Assembly (NCBI GenBank): GCA_031291875.1
Contig: JARLIE010000183.1
Location: 65,356-129,355 of the forward strand
Direction of reading: 5' to 3'
DNA: 64,000 nt
Source of the DNA: Minisyncoccota bacterium
Lineage (GTDB): Bacteria; Patescibacteriota; Minisyncoccia; Phycocordibacterales; UBA2100
The position numbers were made by a program, and so were the translations under genes. Shown piece by piece: positions 8,130 to 32,382 of the stretch. Position 1 is the first letter of the stretch. Every line of letters begins with the position of its first letter. Below the pieces are notes generated by a model. It did no database searches, was not told the DNA's origin, and worked only from the letters and a program-made list of their open reading frames with translations.

Positions 8130-8467
8130 CGAATCAGTAGCGACGCGAAGATTCCTGCGAAACCGAGCCCGAGCCCGATCGTCGCGCCCGCCGTCGGAAA
8201 CTGATGAAACACAAGGTAGGTAATGATCGGTTCCACGATCACGATCGAACCGACCGATATCGCCGTTACGATCCAGATATTTTTCAGCTGTTCGTAGCCA
8301 AGCATGTACCCACCGACGAGGCAGCCGCCGGCCGCCGCAATCAATATGAACATGGTCCAGAATGCGAAAGCCGCTCCCGCTTCCATGTTTTTCGAGGCGA
8401 GTAGTTCGGCGATAATCGAGAATGTTTCGCCGGCAAAAACAAGCACAATCGCGAGAGCGAGATACAT
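8126..8467 (-). CDS. Small 4-TM membrane protein, possibly SMR/DMT-like
   Basis: 113 aa with four hydrophobic helices. TM1 carries AGETFSIIAEL, reminiscent of the EmrE AE..GT motif. Weak call. Confidence 0.4.
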   Translation of the reverse strand: MYLALAIVLVFAGETFSIIAELLASKNMEAGAAFAFWTMFILIAAAGGCLVGGYMLGYEQLKNIWIVTAISVGSIVIVEPIITYLVFHQFPTAGATIGLGLGFAGIFASLLIR

Positions 8468-8540
8468 GGCGGGCGCTGAGGGAATCGAACCCCCACTGGC
8501 GGTTTTGGAGACCGCTGTTCTACCACTAAACTAAGCGCCC
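8467..8540 (-). tRNA. tRNA-Trp (anticodon CCA)
   Basis: Reverse complement gggcgcttagtttagtggtagaacagcggtctCCAaaaccgccagtgggggttcgattccctcagcgcccgcca. Cloverleaf pairs and the 3-prime CCA is encoded. Confidence 0.8.
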
Positions 8541-8771: not shown

Positions 8772-10142
8772 ATGGATGAGATTCAAGAGTCTCAAACGCT
8801 TTGCGTACCGGAGATGCTGTTCACCGAAACTTTGCGGGAAGAATTAGAAAAGGCCATGAGCGAATGGCGCATGGTTACCTATGCGATCCACGGCTTCATC
8901 TTCCGCTTTTACCAGGCGGTGGTGCCGCCCGATCTGGCCAAGTTCCTCGAAGACACATTTGCTTTGCATCTCAACACGTTCGTTGAATTCCCCGACCGAT
9001 GGTTTGCGGCGGGTGGCCTAAGTGTTGTCGTGGAGGAAACAAACCATTCGCTTTTCTCGGACGAGGGGAAGGCAACACTCCGTAGGCTCGAAGTGGTGCT
9101 GGGCAACATCAGCCAATGCACCGGCTACGAGTTTCTATTCCACGCGTCCGAGAACGACTTTCTGGCTCCGAAAAAGGCGAATCGGAAGCAGATTCATGTC
9201 ATTCTCGGCGCCGTTCCTCCGGGAAGCTCAGGATACGTGCTGCGCGATAAGCATCCGGAAACCGGAGAATCGTTCATCATGCAGAACGTAGCTCAGACTC
9301 GCGTCAAAGGACCAGCACCGGGCTGGGGGCACATCGTCAACGCCAAAGATGGCAAGCCAATTGCGCAGATTATCGGTCGGAACTTCTATTTGTTCATTCC
9401 GTCCGAGGGAATCGGCATGAATTTGCTGTCTACCGAGGAGGGCGCCGGGCTCTTCGAATTGGCACTTCGCCTTGCGTGGAACACGTACATCGCCGGCGTG
9501 ACAGCTCCGGAAGAAAAAGTGATCGAGAATCAAGATGACGTGAAGAGGTATCTGGCCCTGATTGGCTCGATAGAACCGGGAGACCTTATGGCAAAAAAGA
9601 TAGCACTGGAGGATGAAATCGAAAACCTTCGTAAAAGCTACCAAAAAAAGCTCAACCTCCTGCGTCACTTGAACACACTTTCTATCGACAGTATGCGACG
9701 AGCACGGAAGCTGCTCGAGAATATCGAGCCATGGCAGCCGGTACTGTCGCACCCGCTGCTTGATCAGATGAGCGTCGTCGCGCAAGCACTACACGTGCGG
9801 ACGAAACCGCTCGTATACGACGGTCATCATCTCGGCGCGTACGTCATAAGGTTCGATTGCAACCCCCTGACGGAGCACTGGAAGGTGACGATCTACTGCG
9901 CTGGCGAGTCGCTACACCCAAACAGTATTCCGCACCCACATATCGGTATGAGTGGCAGTATCTGTTTCGGCAATGTAGGACTGATTCTCGACGAAGCACT
10001 CGTCGAACAGCGTATTCCTGATGCCGTTTTGCTTTGCCTGCGATGGCTTGCCGACGGCTACGACGAAAGTGTTGCGCGGTACAAACTCAGCGAATGGCCG
10101 CGCGTCGAAACTTCCCCCAGCGAAACAAAGGAGACGGCATGA
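8772..10142 (+). CDS. Ubiquitin-conjugating (E2/UBC)-like protein with a ~330-aa N-terminal domain of unknown function
   Basis: C-terminal ~120 aa reads ...WKVTIYCAGESLHPNSIPHPHIGMSGSICFGNVGLILDEALVEQRIPDAVLLCLRWLADGY. This matches the UBC-fold HPN-x(6-8)-G-x-IC-(L/F) catalytic-Cys signature. The stop overlaps the next ATG (ATGA). Confidence 0.6.
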   Translation: MDEIQESQTLCVPEMLFTETLREELEKAMSEWRMVTYAIHGFIFRFYQAVVPPDLAKFLEDTFALHLNTFVEFPDRWFAAGGLSVVVEETNHSLFSDEGKATLRRLEVVLGNISQCTGYEFLFHASENDFLAPKKANRKQIHVILGAVPPGSSGYVLRDKHPETGESFIMQNVAQTRVKGPAPGWGHIVNAKDGKPIAQIIGRNFYLFIPSEGIGMNLLSTEEGAGLFELALRLAWNTYIAGVTAPEEKVIENQDDVKRYLALIGSIEPGDLMAKKIALEDEIENLRKSYQKKLNLLRHLNTLSIDSMRRARKLLENIEPWQPVLSHPLLDQMSVVAQALHVRTKPLVYDGHHLGAYVIRFDCNPLTEHWKVTIYCAGESLHPNSIPHPHIGMSGSICFGNVGLILDEALVEQRIPDAVLLCLRWLADGYDESVARYKLSEWPRVETSPSETKETA

Positions 10143-10789
10143 GCGAGAAGCTCAATCACGCGCATCACGCAAGCATCTTCCACCCGCGCGATGCGAAGCC
10201 CACTACCATCATCGGCGTGGGTGCAGTAGGGAGCCTGGTAGCAGACGCCCTGTCCAAGGTGGGGGTGAGAGATATCACGGTCTGGGATAACGACACGGTC
10301 GCCTCTCACAACTGCTCGATGTCGCTCTATCGTCCACAGGATGTCGGCAAGTTGAAAGTCTGCGCGCTCGCGGAAATACTCGAGCAGCATTCGGGCATCG
10401 TTCCAAAGACTCACGAATGTGACTACCGCGGTGAGGCGCTTCGACACACGAGCGTGGTTGCATGCGTCCATAGCATGCCGGCACGCAAATTGATCTGGGA
10501 CTCCGTTCTAATGAATCCAAGTGTCGATATTTTCTGCGACTCCCGAACGGGCGGGGCATACATTGAAGTGTACGCCATCAACCCGTGCGACCGCAGGGAC
10601 ATCGATCGATACCAATCGCTGCTCTTCGAGGAATCGGAGCGCACCGAGCACTCGTGTGGTAATCACGGCATCATCTACGGCTCGCTCACTGCCGCTTCGG
10701 CGGTTGTGGCGAACCTTACGCGCTACTGGAAAACTGGCGAGAAACAGTGGCGCTACGCGTTGCGCAGTGATATGCTCTCGCCGGCTTGA
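10139..10789 (+). CDS. Minimal E1-like ThiF/MoeB-family adenylyltransferase (216 aa)
   Basis: Rossmann motif TTIIGVGAVGSLVADAL and adenylation motif DNDTVASHNCSMSLYRPQDVGKLKV resemble the ThiF/MoeB DxDxVexSNLnRQ pattern; conserved Cys residues follow. RBS aaaggag is upstream; translationally coupled to the E2-like gene. Confidence 0.7.
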   Translation: MSEKLNHAHHASIFHPRDAKPTTIIGVGAVGSLVADALSKVGVRDITVWDNDTVASHNCSMSLYRPQDVGKLKVCALAEILEQHSGIVPKTHECDYRGEALRHTSVVACVHSMPARKLIWDSVLMNPSVDIFCDSRTGGAYIEVYAINPCDRRDIDRYQSLLFEESERTEHSCGNHGIIYGSLTAASAVVANLTRYWKTGEKQWRYALRSDMLSPA

Positions 10790-10808
10790 AACGAGGAGTA
10801 AACCAGCC

Positions 10809-11045
10809 ATGAAAGTGAAGGTCGAAATCACTCCGGTCACGGGAAATCCCCACGAAACCGAGGTGGAGGTACCGGAAGGCTCGTCGGTGGAGGAAATCCT
10901 GAAGGCCGCCAATTGCGGCACGAAGGGCTTCAACCTCTTCCTCAACAACGAACCGGTGCAAGCGTCGTCGAAAGTCGACAGCACCATCACCCTCAAAGCG
11001 GTCGAGATCAAAATCACCGCGACTGAGCGCGTTGCAGGTTCCTGA
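10809..11045 (+). CDS. Small beta-grasp (ubiquitin-like/ThiS-MoaD-like) protein, 78 aa, C-terminus ...ERVAGS
   Basis: MKVKVEITPVTGNPHETEVEVPEGSSVEEILKAANCGTKGFNLFLNNEPVQASSKVDSTITLKAVEIKITATERVAGS. Size and alternating beta pattern fit a beta-grasp Ubl. A GAGGAG RBS is upstream. Third gene of the E2-E1-Ubl operon. The terminus is not a canonical GG. Confidence 0.5.
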   Translation: MKVKVEITPVTGNPHETEVEVPEGSSVEEILKAANCGTKGFNLFLNNEPVQASSKVDSTITLKAVEIKITATERVAGS

Positions 11046-11074
11046 TTCGCAGCTATCGCTGCAACATGTAAAAA

Positions 11075-11109
11075 TTGGCGATCACCATCGTGTGATCGCC
11101 AATTTCTTT
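11075..11109 (+). terminator. Rho-independent terminator after the Ubl gene
   Basis: ttggcgatcaccatcgtgtgatcgccaatttcttt is a perfect 11-bp stem followed by a T-run. Confidence 0.5.
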
Positions 11110-11220
11110 GGGAAACCCTCGGTTTCCCAAATCCTTCCTCCACGGGAAACCGGTAGGTTTCCCGACCCCTTCCTCCTGCAAGTGGCTGAAATGCCACTGC
11201 CGATATACCAAGGGGGTGTG

Positions 11221-11379
11221 CTACTTTTTCTGCTCCTTGTGGACCGTCTGGGCGCGGCACCACTTGCAGAACTTCTTGATCTCGATTTTGCGCTCTACGA
11301 GCTTTCGGTTCTTGCGCGACCAATAGTTGACGCGGCCGCACTTCGTGCACGCGAGTTTGATGAGCTGATCCTGCGACAT
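11221..11379 (-). CDS. rpmG: 50S ribosomal protein L33 (52 aa), absent from the ORF track because it is under 60 aa
   Basis: Reverse translation gives MSQDQLIKLACTKCGRVNYWSRKNRKLVERKIEIKKFCKWCRAQTVHKEQKK. The C-x2-C...C-x2-C zinc ribbon and basic composition are typical of L33. Confidence 0.8.
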   Translation of the reverse strand: MSQDQLIKLACTKCGRVNYWSRKNRKLVERKIEIKKFCKWCRAQTVHKEQKK

Positions 11380-11413
11380 AGTCGCGGCACTATAGCGCAC
11401 GCCTAAGCTTCGG

Positions 11414-11842
11414 TCAACCGCGCGGCACGAACGGCAAGGAAGCGCTCTGCTGGCTGCAAAGATTGTTCCAACTGCTGTTGTTGGTGAGGGCCGACATTAT
11501 GACGCTCACAATGATCCAGGCCGAGATGATGAGTACAAGGCCTCCGGTTACATATTTGAAGATATTCTTGGCTCGTTTGACCTGGGCGGCATTGCCGCTC
11601 GATGAACCCACGACCAGCTGCCAGCCGGCCCAGGCGAAAAGGATCGCCGAGAGGAAAATGGCAACGAAAATGCCGTCATTGAGGAGGTTTTGGGCAAGTG
11701 TTGCGAGGTCGCAAATCGACTGACAGCCACCCGGCTGATTGCAATCAGACGGGACAACCTGCTGCAACCCGAGCGCCGAGGCGGCAAACGGTGCCAACAT
11801 GACGAGCGTCATGAGAGTCGCGATCATGGCCCTTCTCTTCAT
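11414..11842 (-). CDS. VirB2/TrbC-like small membrane protein (signal peptide plus 2 TM); solo copy
   Basis: MKRRAMIATLMTLVMLAPFAASALG, then two TM helices and a short Cys-containing loop. Same architecture as the tandem array at 21839-23849. The start is placed at the internal Met; the ORF-track N-terminus overlaps the tRNA region. Confidence 0.5.
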   Translation of the reverse strand: MKRRAMIATLMTLVMLAPFAASALGLQQVVPSDCNQPGGCQSICDLATLAQNLLNDGIFVAIFLSAILFAWAGWQLVVGSSSGNAAQVKRAKNIFKYVTGGLVLIISAWIIVSVIMSALTNNSSWNNLCSQQSASLPFVPRG

Positions 11843-11897
11843 GTAAAATATTGTAGCACGGGCGAAAATACGGCATACTGTGCGGGTTCGCGAATAC

Positions 11898-11980
11898 GCG
11901 TCGGTGGCGGAGTGGTCAAACGCACTTGGCTGTAAACCAAGCGGCTTCGGTCTACGCAGGTTCGAATCCTGCCCGGCGCA
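11898..11980 (+). tRNA. tRNA-Tyr (anticodon GTA), class II
   Basis: Acceptor gcgtcgg/ccggcgc (one G-U pair), 3-bp D-stem, anticodon loop ctGTAaa, long variable arm, T-arm gcagg-ttcgaat-cctgc. Followed by the hairpin terminator aaacccgagcatgtctcgggtttt. Confidence 0.75.
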
Positions 11981-12020
11981 CAAAATGCCAAAACCCGAGC
12001 ATGTCTCGGGTTTTGTGCGA

Positions 12021-12137
12021 TTTTGTAGCTGCCGGGCAGGATTCGAAAGACGGAGGCGGGGGTCCCCGCAAGCTTGCGGGGCGCCGAGTCGGGGTCGCGG
12101 AATTTTCTTTGCTGGTAAAGAAAATATCCGTGACCGA
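12021..12137 (+). ncRNA. Unclassified conserved structured element, copy A (second copy at 21703-21822)
   Basis: ttttgtagctg...attcgaaagacggaggcgggggtccccgcaagcttgcggggcgccgagtcggggtcgcggaa...tatccgtgaccga. Shares ~80% identity with copy B, and the differences are compensatory within predicted helices. It starts 41 nt after tRNA-Tyr and no convincing ORF overlaps it. Confidence 0.5.
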
Positions 12138-12194
12138 ATGCTCCCCAAGCAGCGCTAAAAATGAGAATGATACAAATGGAGAGAACTAAAGAAA

Positions 12195-14982: not shown

Positions 14983-15780
14983 TTACTTTTGAGTGGATAT
15001 AAGACTGGCGGGGACAAATCCCGAGGGTGATGACGTCCGCGAGACACCTGTGCTTACGCCGACGATATTCGCAGTTGAATCGATAATGACCGAACCAGGC
15101 TGTATTGCCGATGAATCTATGTCGGTGACGATAGCCTCCGGGAATTGAGTGCTTGAATCCGCTGGCATGATTTCGGTGACGAGGCCCTGCGAGATCCGTA
15201 CCGTACTGATCCCTTCTATCGCGATAACGAGCTGGCCGAGTACCGGCGCGTTTGCCGCCTTTTGTGCCGGCGTCCAGGTCATAGCCGGGCTCGATGTGGT
15301 CGCGGGCGAGAGGTACAAAAGTCCAGAGGAAGGATCGCGAGAGATCACGAATGCTCGGATCTTTGCCCCATCTTGTGTCTGGACGATAGCACTCGCCTGA
15401 TCGCCGAGAGAGTGTATGTCGGCGGCGATCGTGCCTGAGGCGTTGGTTACAACGCCGAGACCTTCAAACTGCGGTTGGTCGTCGAGCGAGTAAATGCGCA
15501 CGATAGAGGGAGAGATCTGCTTAACCGCTTGTGCGATCTGATCCGCTTCATTGACGATCACCGTCTTTTGCGTCGTTGCGGCGGATGCCGTCTGACTCTT
15601 GCTCGAGGTCGCGACCGTTTCGATCGTATTTTCTATCACTCGATTGACCGTTTCTGCGATCGCGGGCGGCGCCTGCTGCATCAAGGAGACAGTGACGATG
15701 CCGGTTGCGATCGAGGTAACGAAGCTGACGAGCAGAGTCAAGAGGACGATCTGGGATTTTGTCAGCTTCTCGATGTCCAT
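14983..15780 (-). CDS. Membrane-anchored trypsin-like (HtrA/S1-like) domain protein with a degenerate catalytic motif
   Basis: Start taken at MDIEKLTKSQIVLLTLLV (TM anchor). The C-terminal region shows weak HtrA-like spacing (..GLGVVTNASGTIAADIHSL..DPSSGLLYL..PGSVIIDSTANIVGV) but lacks a clean GNSGGP. Confidence 0.45.
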   Translation of the reverse strand: MDIEKLTKSQIVLLTLLVSFVTSIATGIVTVSLMQQAPPAIAETVNRVIENTIETVATSSKSQTASAATTQKTVIVNEADQIAQAVKQISPSIVRIYSLDDQPQFEGLGVVTNASGTIAADIHSLGDQASAIVQTQDGAKIRAFVISRDPSSGLLYLSPATTSSPAMTWTPAQKAANAPVLGQLVIAIEGISTVRISQGLVTEIMPADSSTQFPEAIVTDIDSSAIQPGSVIIDSTANIVGVSTGVSRTSSPSGFVPASLISTQK

Positions 15781-16997
15781 GCGGGCACTATAGCATGAGA
15801 CAAAAGTCGTGAAAAAGTCTCTCGAAAGTGAGTAATTTCTTTTCGTGTCGTCGCGCGTCCGAGCGAAATTCGGAGCGTGTTTTCTGCTCGCCAAAGCTCT
15901 GCGCCAAGCGCTTCTACGACATGTGAGGCTTTTTGTCCTTCGTTGCAGGCGCTCTTTGTTGATACGGCGAAGCCCTCATGGTCGAGCGCAAGCGTTAGAT
16001 ACTCGGAATGTATGTCCGGAATGGAGATGTTGAGCATGTGTGGCAGGGCGTGCTTAAGATCTCCATTGATAACAAGTCCTGGAGTATTCTCGGAGAGCTC
16101 ACGTGCAAGCGCATCTCGAAGCGTTTTGAGTCGCTTGGATTCGTCGTGACGCTCCCTTGCGACAAGCTCAAACGCCGCGGCAAAACCGACAGCCAGTGCG
16201 ACATTCTCCGTGCCGGCTCGCAACTCTCGCTCCTGCTTGCCTCCAAGCACGACTCCGGCAACGTTGGTGCGATTCGAAAGATATAAACAACCGACTCCGT
16301 GTGGTCCGTACAATTTCGACGCGCTGATTGAAAGCAGGTCAACCCCGAGCGAGTGTGCAACAGTCGGCTCGTACAGCGGCGCTTGCCCGGCATCCGCGTG
16401 GAAAATAACCCGCGTTCCGTGCTTTTCTTCGTGCAACCGGATCGCCTGCGCGATTTTACCCAGAGGCTGCACACTACCGATCTCGTTGTTTGCCCAGCCG
16501 ACCGAAACGAAAACGGTTTCAGGTTTCAAGACAGCGACAATCGACTCCGGGGTAATGATCCCCTTTTCGTTCGGCGAAACATGCGTAACAGAGCCGCCGA
16601 GTCGTTCTATTTCAGAGAAACACTCAAGCACCGACGAGTGTTCGATCGCGCTCACGATCCAATGGGTTCCATCGAGCGAACCGGACAGGGTCCGACCTTG
16701 TCCGCTAAAACCATCGACGAGCATTCGACGCGCGAATCCGACAATAGCCAGATTATTTGCCTCCGTAAGCCCCGATGTAAAAACGAGCTCGCGTGCCTTG
16801 ACCCCAAGCAACAGGGCGATCCGTTCGCGAGCGTCATTGAGCGCGTTCTTTGCAGCAACGGCTTCCGCGTGAATAGCGCCGGGGTTGCCGACCAGCTTCT
16901 CGGCTTCGCGCATCGCCTCAGCTGCTTCGTGCAAAAGAGGGGTCGCGCTCGCGTGATCCAAATACACTCGTGCGGGAGACGACTTTGAAAACCACAT
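15762..16997 (-). CDS. Cysteine desulfurase (NifS/IscS/SufS class V aminotransferase)
   Basis: Start at MWFSKSSPARVYLDHASATP. PLP-lysine region SASKLYGPHGVGCLYL and overall IscS-like order. The first 75 codons of the longer ORF-track frame look non-coding (Arg/Ser/Thr-rich). Confidence 0.8.
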   Translation of the reverse strand: MWFSKSSPARVYLDHASATPLLHEAAEAMREAEKLVGNPGAIHAEAVAAKNALNDARERIALLLGVKARELVFTSGLTEANNLAIVGFARRMLVDGFSGQGRTLSGSLDGTHWIVSAIEHSSVLECFSEIERLGGSVTHVSPNEKGIITPESIVAVLKPETVFVSVGWANNEIGSVQPLGKIAQAIRLHEEKHGTRVIFHADAGQAPLYEPTVAHSLGVDLLSISASKLYGPHGVGCLYLSNRTNVAGVVLGGKQERELRAGTENVALAVGFAAAFELVARERHDESKRLKTLRDALARELSENTPGLVINGDLKHALPHMLNISIPDIHSEYLTLALDHEGFAVSTKSACNEGQKASHVVEALGAELWRAENTLRISLGRATTRKEITHFRETFSRLLSHAIVPAWTSRS

Positions 16998-17082
16998 AGA
17001 ATGAGTATACTGTTTTTCGTCAAGCCGCCTACTGCGTCCTTCGAAAGCGTTAGCCAAAAAGGATGGCCGACTATGCAACCCT

Positions 17083-18591
17083 ATGACCTCAGCCAAACCA
17101 CAACAAGAAGCAGAGCGTCCGCCCGTCGTGGCGGTTTTAGGACACGTCGACCACGGTAAATCGACGTTGCTGGATTTCATCCGCAAATCGAGCACCGTCG
17201 CAAAGGAAGCGGGAGGCATCACTCAAAAGATCGCCGCCTACGAGATTGAGCGTGAGCGTGAAGGCAAGAATAAGAAAATCACGTTTATCGATACCCCAGG
17301 CCATGCTGCCTTCCAGGCCATCCGCAGACGCGGCGCTTCCGTCGCGGATATCGCGATTTTGGTCGTCGCCGCCGATGACGGTGTCATGGCGCAGACGCTC
17401 GAAGCCCTCCAGGAGATTCGCGACGCCAAGATCCCCTTCATCGTCGCGATCAATAAGATCGACAAACCAAACGCGGACCTGCAGCGCACCGTCTCTTCCC
17501 TCCTCGAACAAAACGTCTTCCTTGAGAAATACGGGGGCGACGTACCCTGGGTCGCGATCTCCGCGAAGCAAGGCACGGGCGTCGACGAACTCCTCGACCT
17601 GGTCTTGTTAGTCGCCGAGTTACAGGAGCTCACGGGAGATGCATCAGTCCCAGCGGAAGGGTATGTCATCGAAGCGCACCGCGACCAAAAGCGCGGCATG
17701 GCGGCAACGCTTATTATCAAGAATGGCTCGCTCAAAAGCGGTATGTTTGTGCTCGCTGGCACGGCGCTCTCGCCGGTGCGAATCATGGAGAACTTTGCCG
17801 GCAAACAAATCAAGGAAGCTAGTTTCTCTTCTCCGGTTCAGCTGATCGGCTTCGACGAGTTGCCAGAGGTCGGCAGCGCGTTCCACACCAGCGAGAAGAA
17901 AAAAGATGCCGAAACAGCACAGGAAGAAGCTCGCACGGCGCGCCCCAAACAAAACACGGTTTCCTCCGAGGCCAACCCGCAGCGCTTCTTAATGCCGCTT
18001 ATCATCCGAGTCGACACGCAAGGCTCGCTCGATGCGCTCCTCTTTGAACTTGCGAAAATCGGCGATGAATTCTCTGGCGTCAAAGTAGTTTCCGCTGGCA
18101 TTGGCACTATTTCCGAAAGCGACATCAAGACGGCGATCGCCTCCAAAGAACCGGCGACGGTGCTTGGCTTTAACGTCGGTATCGACTCGGTCGCACAAAC
18201 ACTAGCCGATCGCGACGGCATACGTGTCCAAACGTACGACATCATTTATAAACTCAGCGAAGGACTTACCGAGCTTTTGCAACAAACGAGGCCAAAGCGC
18301 TCGATCGAAGAGGTTGTCGGCAAGGCAAAAGTGCTCAAACAATTCTCAAGTCGTAAAGACGAGCACGTGATCGGCGGCGGCGTTACGAGCGGCTATATCG
18401 CGAAGAACGGTACGGTTCGCGTGCTTCGCCGCAACCTTTCGCTCGGCACCGGAAAAGTAACCAACCTTCAAAAGAACAAGCAGGACGTCGATCGAGCCCA
18501 GGAAGGCTCTGAATTCGGCGCGCAGATCGTTGCCGATTTCGAAATCGCACCGGGCGATGTGCTCGAATGTATCGTGACAAGAGTCGAATAG
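17083..18591 (+). CDS. infB: Translation initiation factor IF-2, short form (G domain to C2 only, 502 aa)
   Basis: VVAVLGHVDHGKSTLLD G1, DTPGH G3, NKID G4; followed by rbfA as in the canonical operon. Confidence 0.9.
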   Translation: MTSAKPQQEAERPPVVAVLGHVDHGKSTLLDFIRKSSTVAKEAGGITQKIAAYEIEREREGKNKKITFIDTPGHAAFQAIRRRGASVADIAILVVAADDGVMAQTLEALQEIRDAKIPFIVAINKIDKPNADLQRTVSSLLEQNVFLEKYGGDVPWVAISAKQGTGVDELLDLVLLVAELQELTGDASVPAEGYVIEAHRDQKRGMAATLIIKNGSLKSGMFVLAGTALSPVRIMENFAGKQIKEASFSSPVQLIGFDELPEVGSAFHTSEKKKDAETAQEEARTARPKQNTVSSEANPQRFLMPLIIRVDTQGSLDALLFELAKIGDEFSGVKVVSAGIGTISESDIKTAIASKEPATVLGFNVGIDSVAQTLADRDGIRVQTYDIIYKLSEGLTELLQQTRPKRSIEEVVGKAKVLKQFSSRKDEHVIGGGVTSGYIAKNGTVRVLRRNLSLGTGKVTNLQKNKQDVDRAQEGSEFGAQIVADFEIAPGDVLECIVTRVE

Positions 18592-30722: not shown

Positions 30723-31832
30723 ATGTCTACAGCAGAACTCGAGACGAAAGTCTCTGAAGTGGAAGAAGTGAAGGAGGCTACTGGCCCAATGGCCGAGCTC
30801 CTCAAAACGGCGCCGCACACGCCGATGCTTGACGATGTGGTGGAAGGACCCGTCGTCGCTATCGGTCGCGCAAAGGTCTACATCGACCTTCCCCCGTTCG
30901 GCACCGGCATTATCTACGGTCGCGAGTACCTCTCAGCCCGTGAGACGTTGAAAAACGTCCACCTCGGCGACACGGTAACCGCGAAGGTCGTCGGACTCGA
31001 TAACGAAGAGGGATACATCGAGCTCTCGCTGCGCGAGGCTCGCGCGGCGCTCATGTGGAACGAAGCCGAGGTCGCGATGCAAAAGAAGACGGTATTCGAT
31101 CTTCCGATCGCGGACGCCAACAAGGGCGGTCTTATCGTGCACTGGCAAGGCATTCAGGGTTTCCTCCCTGCTTCGCAACTCGCGCCGGCGCACTACCCGC
31201 GCGTCCCGGACGGCGATAAGGACAAGATCTTCCTCGAGCTCAAGAAGCTCGTCGGTCAGAAACTCGAGATGGTTATTATCACCGCGAGCCCGAAGGAGCA
31301 GAAGCTTATCTTCGGCGAGAAGGGCGCAGGCCAATCGGAACGCTCTTCGCTTGTTGAGAAGTACCATGTCGGCGATGTGCTCGACGGCGTCGTAACCGGC
31401 GCGACCGAGTTCGGCGTCTTCGTCAAATTGGAGGAAGGCCTCGAAGGCTTGGTGCACATTTCAGAAATGGACTGGGCGCTCGTCGAGAATCCAAAGACTC
31501 GCTACAAGGCTGGTGAGAAGGTCAATGTGAAGGTCATCGAGATTAAGGACGACAAGATCTCGCTCTCAATCAAAGCACTCAAAGACGATCCGTGGAAGAC
31601 GGCTGCCGCAAAGTACAAGAAAGACCAGAAGGTCGAGGCCGTTGTCATCAAATACAACAAGCACGGCGCGCTCGCTTCTATCGAAGAGGGTGTGGCGGGA
31701 TTGGTGCACGTTTCCGAATTCGGCAACGAAGACGAACTTCGCCAAAAGCTCGAGCTCGGCAAGGTCTACCCTTTCACGATCACATTCTTCGAACCGAAAG
31801 ATCGTCGCATGACGCTCAAGCCGGTCAACTAA
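30723..31832 (+). CDS. rpsA: 30S ribosomal protein S1 (four S1 domains)
   Basis: Four repeated OB-fold S1 units (..GDTVTAKVVGLD..; ..GQKLEMVIITASPKEQKLIF..; ..GDVLDGVVTGATEFGVFVKL..; ..GEKVNVKVIEIKDDKISLS..). Confidence 0.85.
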   Translation: MSTAELETKVSEVEEVKEATGPMAELLKTAPHTPMLDDVVEGPVVAIGRAKVYIDLPPFGTGIIYGREYLSARETLKNVHLGDTVTAKVVGLDNEEGYIELSLREARAALMWNEAEVAMQKKTVFDLPIADANKGGLIVHWQGIQGFLPASQLAPAHYPRVPDGDKDKIFLELKKLVGQKLEMVIITASPKEQKLIFGEKGAGQSERSSLVEKYHVGDVLDGVVTGATEFGVFVKLEEGLEGLVHISEMDWALVENPKTRYKAGEKVNVKVIEIKDDKISLSIKALKDDPWKTAAAKYKKDQKVEAVVIKYNKHGALASIEEGVAGLVHVSEFGNEDELRQKLELGKVYPFTITFFEPKDRRMTLKPVN

Positions 31833-31852
31833 CCTCAGTCAATCCAAAAACA

Positions 31853-31887
31853 AAAACCGCGACAATGAGTCGCGGTTTTTGTTTTGT
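31853..31887 (+). terminator. Rho-independent terminator after rpsA
   Basis: aaaaccgcgacaatgagtcgcggtttttgttttg. Confidence 0.6.
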
Positions 31888-31926
31888 CTTTCCAAACCCC
31901 ACGGGGTCGAACCTTGTCCGCTTGGT

Positions 31927-32382
31927 TTATTCGATTTCGCCGGGGTGCCAACCAAATTCGGCTAGAGCGATGTTGGATTTGTATTTTTCTATCGCAAAAC
32001 GAACCGACGGAACGGTATTTTCAGGCAACGTGTTGAGCGAGAACCACGAAAGATCATCGCACTTTTCTGGTTCGGTATTTTGCGGCTCACCTTCCCATTC
32101 CGATATCACGAAGAAAAAGTCCATATAACTGCGGCCGTTCGAGGTTCGGTGCATGACGTGCACGAACCGCTCCTGTCCCGGTCGCAATTCGATCCCCGTT
32201 TCCTCACGCACCTCGCGTCGCAAAGCCTCGGTGATCGATTCCCCAGCTTCGAGATGTCCGGCCGGCAATCCATAGTTGCCGTCTTGCCAGCCTGTATTGA
32301 ACCTTCGGAGCATCAATAACCGATCGTCTTTGATAAGAAGTCCATATACCGCAGCCCGAAGCGTAAATCGTTCGTCAGCCAT
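31927..32382 (-). CDS. NUDIX hydrolase
   Basis: Nudix box GHLEAGESITEALRREVREETGIE. Confidence 0.8.
   Translation of the reverse strand: MADERFTLRAAVYGLLIKDDRLLMLRRFNTGWQDGNYGLPAGHLEAGESITEALRREVREETGIELRPGQERFVHVMHRTSNGRSYMDFFFVISEWEGEPQNTEPEKCDDLSWFSLNTLPENTVPSVRFAIEKYKSNIALAEFGWHPGEIE

Follow-up and report, generated by a model that had tools for sequence, protein, structure and literature searches.

The three-gene operon and its products

In a 64,000-nucleotide stretch of contig JARLIE010000183.1 (the window), from a Minisyncoccota bacterium, three adjacent genes on the forward strand encode a large E2-like protein (ORF1; ORF, open reading frame), a small E1-like enzyme (ORF2) and a ubiquitin-like protein, or Ubl (ORF3). 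A preliminary description had taken them for an E2-E1-Ubl conjugation cassette. This identity is supported by the match of ORF2 to ThiF, the fold and motif of the E2-like domain, the SAMP2 profile match of the ORF3 family and a conserved gene order. The three-gene layout with its coordinates, the quoted motifs, the ATGA overlap joining the ORF1 stop to the ORF2 start and the GAGGAG ribosome-binding site are all present in the sequence as had been described. All evidence is computational, and the steps of the mechanism proposed below are inferred from homology. The operon comprises the following features.

8772..10142 (+), ORF1 ("E2big"), 456 aa: N-terminal alpha/beta region, coiled coil, predicted C-terminal E2-like domain
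8772..9506 (+), ORF1 residues 1-245: alpha/beta region, fold without assignment; predicted local distance difference test (pLDDT) 75-92
9531..9719 (+), ORF1 residues 254-316: long helix/coiled coil joining the two domains; DSSP on the model gives helices 254-303 and 307-316
9735..10100 (+), ORF1 residues 322-443: predicted UBC/E2-like domain
9933..9965 (+), active-site motif H388-P389-H390-x7-C398; codon of Cys398 at 9963-9965
10139..10789 (+), ORF2, 216 aa: single-domain ThiF/MoeB-type E1
10793..10798 (+), GAGGAG, ribosome-binding site of ORF3, read directly in the sequence
10809..11045 (+), ORF3, 78 aa, ending ...ERVAGS*: predicted beta-grasp Ubl of the SAMP2/ThiS class
11025..11042 (+), Ubl tail E73-R74-V75-A76-G77-S78; E, R, G and S invariant in the family
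11072..11112 (+), intrinsic terminator closing the operon: 14-bp stem, 6-nt loop, then TTTCTTT

One terminator lies 3' of ORF3, and the segment 11046-11125 folds at -31.9 kcal/mol (ViennaRNA). ORF1 is 100% identical to the NCBI entry 'hypothetical protein P4L81_05110'.

The assignment of ORF2 to the ThiF-type E1s is borne out by Pfam ThiF (PF00899), which it matches at 3.1e-13 and 49.9 bits, for a cut-off of 28.1. The PADLOC models of Cap2-type E1-E2 proteins match it at 1.9e-13, on their E1 halves only, and its sequence matches in the PDB are TcdA and the adenylation domains of UBA3, UBA5, Cap2, MccB and ATG7. The Rossmann motif GVGAVGS (GxGxxG) occupies residues 26-32 (10214-10234) and DNDTVASHN residues 50-58, D50 and D52 forming the DxD; the lysine of GxxKV is present as K73. 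An invariant cysteine, Cys173 (10655-10657), lies in a CGxHG motif and aligns with MoeB Cys187. A second domain and Zn-binding CxxC pairs are both absent from ORF2.

For ORF1, a first AlphaFold2 model made from 5 sequences had a pLDDT of 62 and was too poor for the N-terminal region, and a second, made from a 20-sequence alignment, had a mean pLDDT of 79.7. When the first was compared with the PDB by Foldseek, all of the 50 best matches were eukaryotic E2s; with the second, E2s made up 49 of 50, giving 99 of 100 across the two independent models. Residues 322-443 adopt the UBC alpha/beta fold in the model, with an N-terminal helix, a 4-stranded antiparallel sheet and C-terminal helices. The active-site motif is held by IPHPHIGMSGSICFG (residues 386-400) and extends as C398-x-G-N; H388, P389, H390, C398 and G400 are 99% conserved among 135 full-length family members. 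Its His-to-Cys spacing is identical to that of UbcH5 (HPN-x7-C, the cysteine being C85), and HPH-x7-C is also present in human UBE2W, a bona fide E2, as checked against the PDB. When aligned with eukaryotic E2s by hhalign, the family profile keeps register across 63 columns that reach from the sheet to the active site (P 6.6e-5); the E2 references were four sequences, of which UBE2W was checked against the PDB. No Pfam family matched ORF1 or five isolated C-terminal domains at E ≤ 10, and ORF1 has no sequence match in the PDB. Single-sequence and 5-sequence profiles of ORF1, of its N-terminal region and of its C-terminal domain were equally blank in Pfam, PADLOC, NCBIfam and the PDB sequences. 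The UBC assignment made for the C-terminus held for fold and motif register, and not for Pfam. From fold, motif and context, rather than from a significant sequence-model match, we conclude that residues ~322-443 form a predicted E2 domain that is catalytically plausible.

The preliminary description had also given this E2 an N-terminal domain of ~330 residues without a recognisable motif. A large extra region is indeed there, to which no profile or structural match could be assigned, but it is made of an alpha/beta part of ~245 residues and a coiled coil of ~65. Its conserved core spans residues ~100-245 (G118, P133, P149-P150-G151, G186, Q199, Y206, P210), and residues 1-100 are variable across the family. 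The idea that the region is a degenerate E2/UEV or a Ubl was rejected, hhalign probabilities being 0.3-19%.

ORF3 alone gave only sub-threshold matches to SAMP2, ThiS and BilA (0.012 for the PADLOC BilA model). A profile of 16 family members reached SAMP2 (5lda_B, 4.8e-5), PF1061 (5.7e-5) and RnfH (5.7e-3) in the PDB, and also MoaD, ubiquitin and ThiS; because of these matches we assign ORF3, at the profile level, to the beta-grasp proteins of the SAMP2/ThiS class. Pfam SAMP2 itself matches 9 of the 16 members, at best with 5.9e-5, under its gathering score. ORF3 does not end in Gly-Gly but in Gly-Ser, as had been noted, and this ending is invariant: the tails of 19 distinct orthologues read E-R-x-x-G-S (ERPQGS, ERVAGS, ERAAGS, ERASGS, ERARGS, ERVSGS). 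In the alignment with SAMP2, seven residues are left after the aligned block in both proteins, and therefore GS occupies the position of GG. The invariant arginine lies at -4 from Ser78; in ubiquitin, Arg72 stands at the same distance from Gly76.

Many Ubls of the Gly-Ser (GS) type begin with a tail of 15-25 residues rich in Lys/Arg (for example MSRKNKRNKKPAQTK...; loci L013, L027, L033, L036, L038, L039 and L040), which is not found on ORF3 of the window. Such tails could supply acceptor lysines or nucleic-acid affinity.

Distribution of the cassette and its JAB-containing sisters

An exhaustive profile search with ORF1 over 1.84 billion cluster representatives returned 555 matches at E ≤ 1e-3, of which 108 at E ≤ 1e-30, that is, at least 555 clusters at 50% identity. 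Most of these relatives have 440-520 aa, and the match starts near residue 100 and extends to the end; the N-terminal region, which had looked like a one-off fusion, is a conserved part of a large family. Relatives that carry a source name are without exception entered as 'hypothetical protein', and no Pfam domain was found in any. A word-indexed protein search under-reports the family, as it yielded 5 relatives, to which a 135-sequence profile added one more.

A search for loci with an alignment (A1) gave no match in GTDB representatives, IMG/VR or JGI metagenomes, and a DNA pattern back-translated from the HPH motif was used instead. In the GTDB species representatives this pattern matched 28 loci, of which 26 proved real. 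Hosts within the Candidate Phyla Radiation (CPR) are Uhr-, Kaiser- and Buchananbacteria, Paceibacterota, Saccharibacteria and other Patescibacteria, so that the cassette, thought unusual for a reduced genome, is in fact carried by many CPR lineages. The other hosts are Binatia, Gammaproteobacteria, Phycisphaerales, Deltaproteobacteria, Myxococcota (with three copies in one genome) and a Thermoplasmatota metagenome-assembled genome (MAG).

At least 20 loci from several phyla encode a big E2, a small E1 and a small Ubl one after the other on one strand, with E2 identities of ~20-47%. The same order, and with it the E1/E2 pairing, is kept in every orthologous locus recovered; the association goes far beyond chance. 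Within the clade of the window, identities are 64-69% for the E1, 54-58% for the Ubl and 37-46% for the E2 protein; inside ORF1, divergence is faster in the N-terminal region (35-40%) than in the E2 domain (49-63%). Among the close orthologues, the one that has diverged most (L006:4164-4285) has an E2 ORF without the stop normally found there (KEAA*), which continues for ~120 nt across the E1 gene in a different frame; because of this overrun the gene caller cut the E1 to 180 aa, and the full 218-aa E1 starts at ATG 4164.

No description of an E1/E2/Ubl system of CPR or Patescibacteria was found in the literature searched, the coverage of which is incomplete. The cassette family appears to be previously undescribed, although its proteins clearly belong to the known E1, E2 and beta-grasp superfamilies. 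What seems new here is the operon family, the E2 architecture, the absent peptidase and the non-glycine terminus.

A set of sister cassettes shares the HPH-x7-C E2 domain and the small-E1 clade with the GS-type cassettes. They occur in a Deltaproteobacterium, Buchananbacteria, Myxococcota (Myxococcales), a Thermoplasmatota MAG and 17 viral contigs of IMG/VR (L041-L057; 12-193 kb, 15 of the 17 over 40 kb). An HPH-type E2 is present in all 17 viral contigs, which were matched by the HPH-motif pattern, and, within the fetched stretch, a related small E1 in 14. Between E2 and E1, an extra gene of ~0.7-1.1 kb is found in 11 of the 17 viral loci and in three of four genomic variant loci. All nine viral gap genes that were read carry the canonical JAMM motif HxHx7SxxD of the deubiquitinase-like JAB peptidases, and one genomic variant gap gene has a weak Prok-JAB match (1.6e-4). 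The Ubls of these sisters end in GG followed by a variable extension (GGM, GGN, GGCL, GG+5); the tails seen on the viral contigs are GGCL, GGN and KGA. Most sister cassettes lack the ORF1 N-terminal region. Three JAB-containing cassettes carry it (L024, L030, L052), and for this reason the idea that the region stands in for a missing JAB was rejected. A tblastn search of GenBank phages and PLSDB plasmids gave no match.

Some viral contigs have tandem short (~200 aa) E2 paralogues. A divergent, multi-copy variant was also observed in Myxococcota (L011, L014, L018, L023, L034; three loci are on chromosome OZ223209.1). Its E2 of ~510-550 aa matches the coiled coil and the E2 domain only, a Ubl ending in DGG + 5 residues is encoded directly upstream of the E2, and no E1 was detected within the 8-kb blocks.

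A JAB or other peptidase was found in no GS-type cassette, and the two types of E1 differ in one loop, that of the nucleotide and tail. At the position equivalent to the canonical SNLxRQ, all 18 GS-type E1s read SHN-x-P-M-S; in 14 JAB/GG-type E1s the loop is HNLPNQ-like, nearer to SNLxRQ, and its last position is Gln in 13 of the 14. The residues following the catalytic cysteine differ as well, being CGxHG in GS-type E1s versus C-T in the JAB/GG-type.

Genomic context and comparison with known systems

The operon lies between tRNA-Trp and rpmG/tRNA-Tyr, as had been stated. Its surroundings include the following genes.

8467-8540 (-), tRNA-Trp
11221-11400 (-), rpmG
11898-11981 (+), tRNA-Tyr
14983-15891, trypsin-like peptidase gene, 4 kb from the operon
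15762-17222, class-V aminotransferase (NifS-like) gene

ClpB is also among the near flanks; MiaA, an MFS transporter, an AcrB/HlyD pair, a K+ channel and IF-2 are encoded further away in the window. The longest ORF called at 11414-12148 (-) overlaps tRNA-Tyr. Its plausible part is the C-terminal ~138 aa (11414-11830), matching T4SS_pilin (5e-6), that is, a small membrane or pilin-like protein adjoining rpmG.

A deubiquitinase-like peptidase had been reported missing beside the operon; likewise, no JAB/JAMM motif was found in any real gene of the 64-kb window. The sole HxH..S..D match (HDHILRTERSSHD, 31592-32128 +) was discarded as a false positive because it is a shadow frame overlapping rpsA (ribosomal protein S1, 30723-31832).

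From its tRNA-flanked position the operon had been thought to be acquired defence cargo. This is not supported by composition, by mobile genes or by clustering with defence genes. The GC content of the operon, 0.51-0.57, is the same as that of its surroundings. A Pfam scan of ten flanking ORFs together with the ORF listing of 1-22000 (smaller flanking ORFs being unscanned) disclosed no integrase or defence gene beside it, the neighbours in the window being genes of housekeeping or transport. Three related Paceibacterota lineages (L001, L003, L021) have the cassette embedded in one conserved housekeeping block, DnaX-Dus / cassette / FtsQ-like-SerRS, whose neighbouring genes are ~70% identical between lineages, the E2 proteins being ~43% identical. 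The FtsQ-like and Dus genes were considered as a fourth member of the cassette and rejected, as they reflect clade-specific synteny. A census of 80 neighbouring ORFs from 16 main-family loci gave Pfam matches that are mostly housekeeping (IMPDH, GroEL/ES, TsaD, MetK, DNA polymerase III delta', SerRS), and PADLOC matches were sporadic (one mad3, generic helicases). The sole recurrent neighbour is Exo_endo_phos, directly upstream in 4 loci; AAA_28 and RNase_H_2 occur twice each. Because the neighbourhoods are mostly housekeeping, the cargo view finds no support, and in Paceibacterota the cassette seems to behave like a vertically inherited, resident gene set rather than an island cargo.

The four Exo_endo_phos loci (L013:1-2437, L038:2848-4176, L039:238-1458, L040:5714-8241) have one or two such EEP nuclease/phosphatase genes on the same strand and differ in phylum label; downstream, a 204-aa ORF and AAA_28 are common to L039 and L040.

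The architecture had been likened to 6E, Bil, Bub and Cap2-type systems. It departs from these in that there is no JAB, no DUF6527 and no E2-E1 or Ubl-E2 fusion, the E1 is not of the IAD-AAD-CYS form, and the conserved residues are cysteines instead of the Ser/Tyr of Bub. With Bil (BilABCD; Iyer class 6d) the cassette shares separate Ubl, E2 and E1 genes, a cysteine-based E1-to-E2 relay (predicted for the window) and the lack of an E3, for which reason target choice in Bil is ascribed to the E2; a Ubl with a single beta-grasp, as here, is frequent in type II Bil. However, Bil always has the JAB peptidase BilC, which the window cassette lacks. The Bil E1 combines a tandem IAD-AAD with a mobile CYS domain and a Zn site, whereas ORF2 is a 216-aa single domain without Zn cysteines. 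The Bil Ubl reacts via a C-terminal Gly exposed by BilC, whereas ORF3 ends in the invariant Gly-Ser, and the window E2 has an extra N-terminal region of ~320 aa.

In the Cap2-Cap3 pair of type II CBASS (cyclic oligonucleotide-based antiphage signalling system), Pycsar and metallo-beta-lactamase (MBL) systems (Iyer 6a/6b), Cap2 is an E2-E1 fusion, its substrate is the C-terminus of the CD-NTase and not a Ubl, and the JAB Cap3 is always present. In the window two distinct genes encode the E2 and the E1, neither a CD-NTase nor a JAB accompanies them, and only the E1 domain resembles Cap2. Bub (6E/DUF6527) likewise combines Ubl, E2 and E1, and type II Bub usually lacks a JAB. Yet Bub proteins are fused (Ubl-E2, JAB-E1 or E2-E1), while the window genes are separate; Bub operons encode the DUF6527 serine protease BubE, and no DUF6527 is found here; and Bub catalysis uses Ser/Tyr oxyesters without cysteines, whereas Cys398 and Cys173 are invariant in the family of the window. 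All characterised bacterial pathways are reported to encode a JAB, and all Bub operons BubE (Ye et al. 2024, PMC11601596); the classes 6a-6e of Iyer et al. 2006 all include a JAB (PMC1779556).

The archaeal SAMP, bacterial TtuB and ThiS/MoaD-ThiF/MoeB systems have in common with the cassette a Ubl whose sequence is closest to SAMP2/ThiS, and a minimal, single-domain ThiF/MoeB-like E1 with a crossover-loop cysteine. They have no E2 and their tags end in Gly-Gly, unlike the window cassette, where an E2-fold protein is always present and the tag ends in Gly-Ser. Two eukaryotic cases resemble the cassette in part. UBE2W has HPH-x7-C as in the ORF1 family, and UBA5, which is among the best PDB sequence matches of ORF2, is a minimal homodimeric E1 with its catalytic Cys in the adenylation domain. 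Its partner UFM1 reacts via a single Gly preceded by Arg-Val, the precursor ending in G-SC. This is a resemblance only, as no specific sequence relationship with UBE2W or UBA5-UFM1 was demonstrated, and architectures and partners differ.

Proposed mechanism, alternatives and role

With moderate confidence, the three genes may be read as a self-contained, E3-independent and peptidase-less Ubl-conjugation cascade, with a thioester relay from E1 to E2 and direct transfer to an acceptor chosen by the N-terminal region and the coiled coil. ORF2, acting like MoeB, ThiF or UBA5 and probably as a homodimer, would use ATP to adenylate the C-terminal carboxylate of ORF3. The acyl group would then move to the crossover-loop Cys173 and from there to the HPH-x7-C site of the E2 domain, at Cys398. 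The fast-evolving N-terminal region and the coiled coil of ORF1 would select the acceptor, and possibly dimerise the enzyme, and the E2 would discharge the tag directly onto a target amine. As the cassette encodes no peptidase, it would have no dedicated enzyme to undo the modification.

Several observations weigh against this cascade. ORF1 is recognised by neither Pfam UQ_con, Prok-E2_A to E, PADLOC nor NCBIfam, the Foldseek E-values of its E2 matches are weak (0.01-0.1), and the hhalign probability of its alignment with E2s is 64%. Neither the Arg of SNLxRQ nor the Zn-binding CxxC pairs occur anywhere in the E1 family. Where MoeB D130 and the 'LDS' of UBA3 have the Mg-binding Asp, ORF2 has His111 (10469-10471), and it reads VHS, with no Asp at +1, while its three closest orthologues read VHD. 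Finally, BilA of E. aridi, which ends in G97-A98, is unreactive with its E1 until the JAB BilC removes Ala98 (PMC10557695). Because of these departures from the Mg-Asp, the SNLxRQ Arg and the CxxC pairs, the adenylation chemistry may be altered. The high conservation of ORF2 argues for a working enzyme, the chemistry of which may deviate from the textbook.

Whether the Mg-site change has disabled the window copy deserves separate attention. At the position of His111, an Asp ('CVDxM') is found in all JAB/GG-type E1s and, among the 18 GS-type E1s read, in 14, as in UBA3 and MoeB, and the His is restricted to the Paceibacterota subclade of the window. One could therefore suppose that this copy is catalytically crippled or decaying, the more so as the Asp at +1 of the VHD orthologues is also missing. 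Yet none of the three ORFs is broken, they are translationally coupled, no protein of the operon is better conserved than the E1 (64-69% to orthologues sharing the His), its other motifs are intact, and His can also ligate metal; we regard decay as very improbable. Hardly more credible is the view that ORF3 is a thiocarboxylate carrier like ThiS, MoaD or TtuB, activated by ORF2 for tRNA or cofactor thiolation, with ORF1 as an accessory. Its nearest relatives are of the SAMP2/ThiS type, ORF2 is of MoeB/ThiF size, and a NifS-like aminotransferase (15762-17222) and genes for tRNA modification lie close by, namely MiaA in the window and Dus in three orthologous loci. However, every locus has inherited, along with the other two proteins, an E2 fold bearing a near-invariant HPH-x7-C, none of the cassettes contains a rhodanese domain or a sulfurtransferase, and the linkage to Dus and MiaA is limited to one CPR clade. 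Moreover, sulfur carriers end in Gly-Gly, and ORF3 in Gly-Ser.

Within the conjugation cascade, the question is which residue reacts. On balance we lean towards Gly-Ser as the reactive end, Ser78 being adenylated and conjugated. This is favoured because the Ser is invariant while the extensions after GG vary in the JAB-containing sisters, because GS sits at the position of GG in the SAMP2 alignment, because the JAB is absent from the GS-type and was seen in all nine viral sisters whose gap gene was read, because the E1 loop co-varies with the tail type, and because the spacing of the invariant Arg equals that of Arg72 and Gly76 in ubiquitin. Alternatively, the same machinery could act on a capped pro-form, Ser78 being a one-residue cap and Gly77 being exposed by a peptidase encoded elsewhere, in the host or possibly in a phage; the system would therefore be gated by proteolysis. 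Many Ubls are made as precursors, such as Ufm1 (ending in VG-SC) and Atg8 (trimmed to Gly), and a trypsin-like peptidase gene lies 4 kb off (14983-15891). The precedent of E. aridi BilA and its Ala98 (PMC10557695) makes removal of the cap by an unlinked peptidase a serious alternative, to which we nevertheless give limited weight: cleaved extensions vary whereas this Ser does not, no linked peptidase is present in at least 20 cassettes that have moved between phyla, the E1 loop follows the tail type, and GS is equivalent in position to GG.

As to the role of the cascade, we think defence doubtful; otherwise it would serve resident regulation or quality control. By analogy with Bil, the variable N-terminal region might recognise a phage protein, which would be tagged so as to block assembly or infection. 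Two of the characterised bacterial Ubl pathways, Bil and type II CBASS, serve immunity, and the same is suspected of Bub (PMC11601596). A patchy spread over phyla, sisters on 17 IMG/VR viral contigs, three copies of a multi-copy variant in one Myxococcota genome and an N-terminal region evolving faster than the catalytic parts make a role in immunity or conflict conceivable, and Exo_endo_phos upstream in 4 loci would also fit. The housekeeping-dominated neighbourhoods with their sporadic PADLOC matches, the synteny kept within Paceibacterota, the unremarkable composition, the lack of a CapW or CapH-CapP-type regulator among the Pfam-scanned flanking genes and the lack of matches in GenBank phages or plasmids all speak against it.

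A broader picture, which we offer tentatively, is that of a widespread prokaryotic Ubl pathway, abundant in CPR, in which a C-terminal serine would be activated and conjugated thanks to a co-evolved E1 loop, the window operon being its founding example. For want of a peptidase for deconjugation or processing, the tag would be irreversible, and its role would be resident, housekeeping or regulatory rather than immune, the JAB/GG cassettes being ancestors or sisters.

The ~555 clusters of this family, all 'hypothetical protein' and invisible to Pfam, NCBIfam and PADLOC, represent an annotation gap. GS-type cassettes without a JAB and GG-type cassettes with one, differing in one E1 loop, offer a natural comparison for how an E1 reads the tail of its Ubl. 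The characterised pathways (CBASS Cap2/3, Bil, Bub) all include a peptidase, and their tags react via a C-terminal glycine, except for Cap2, which conjugates a CD-NTase. Should this large family prove active, its lack of a peptidase and its invariant Gly-Ser terminus would extend both the chemistry and the logic known for Ubl conjugation. The cassette is a candidate protein-tagging system for CPR bacteria, whose post-translational regulation is almost unknown.

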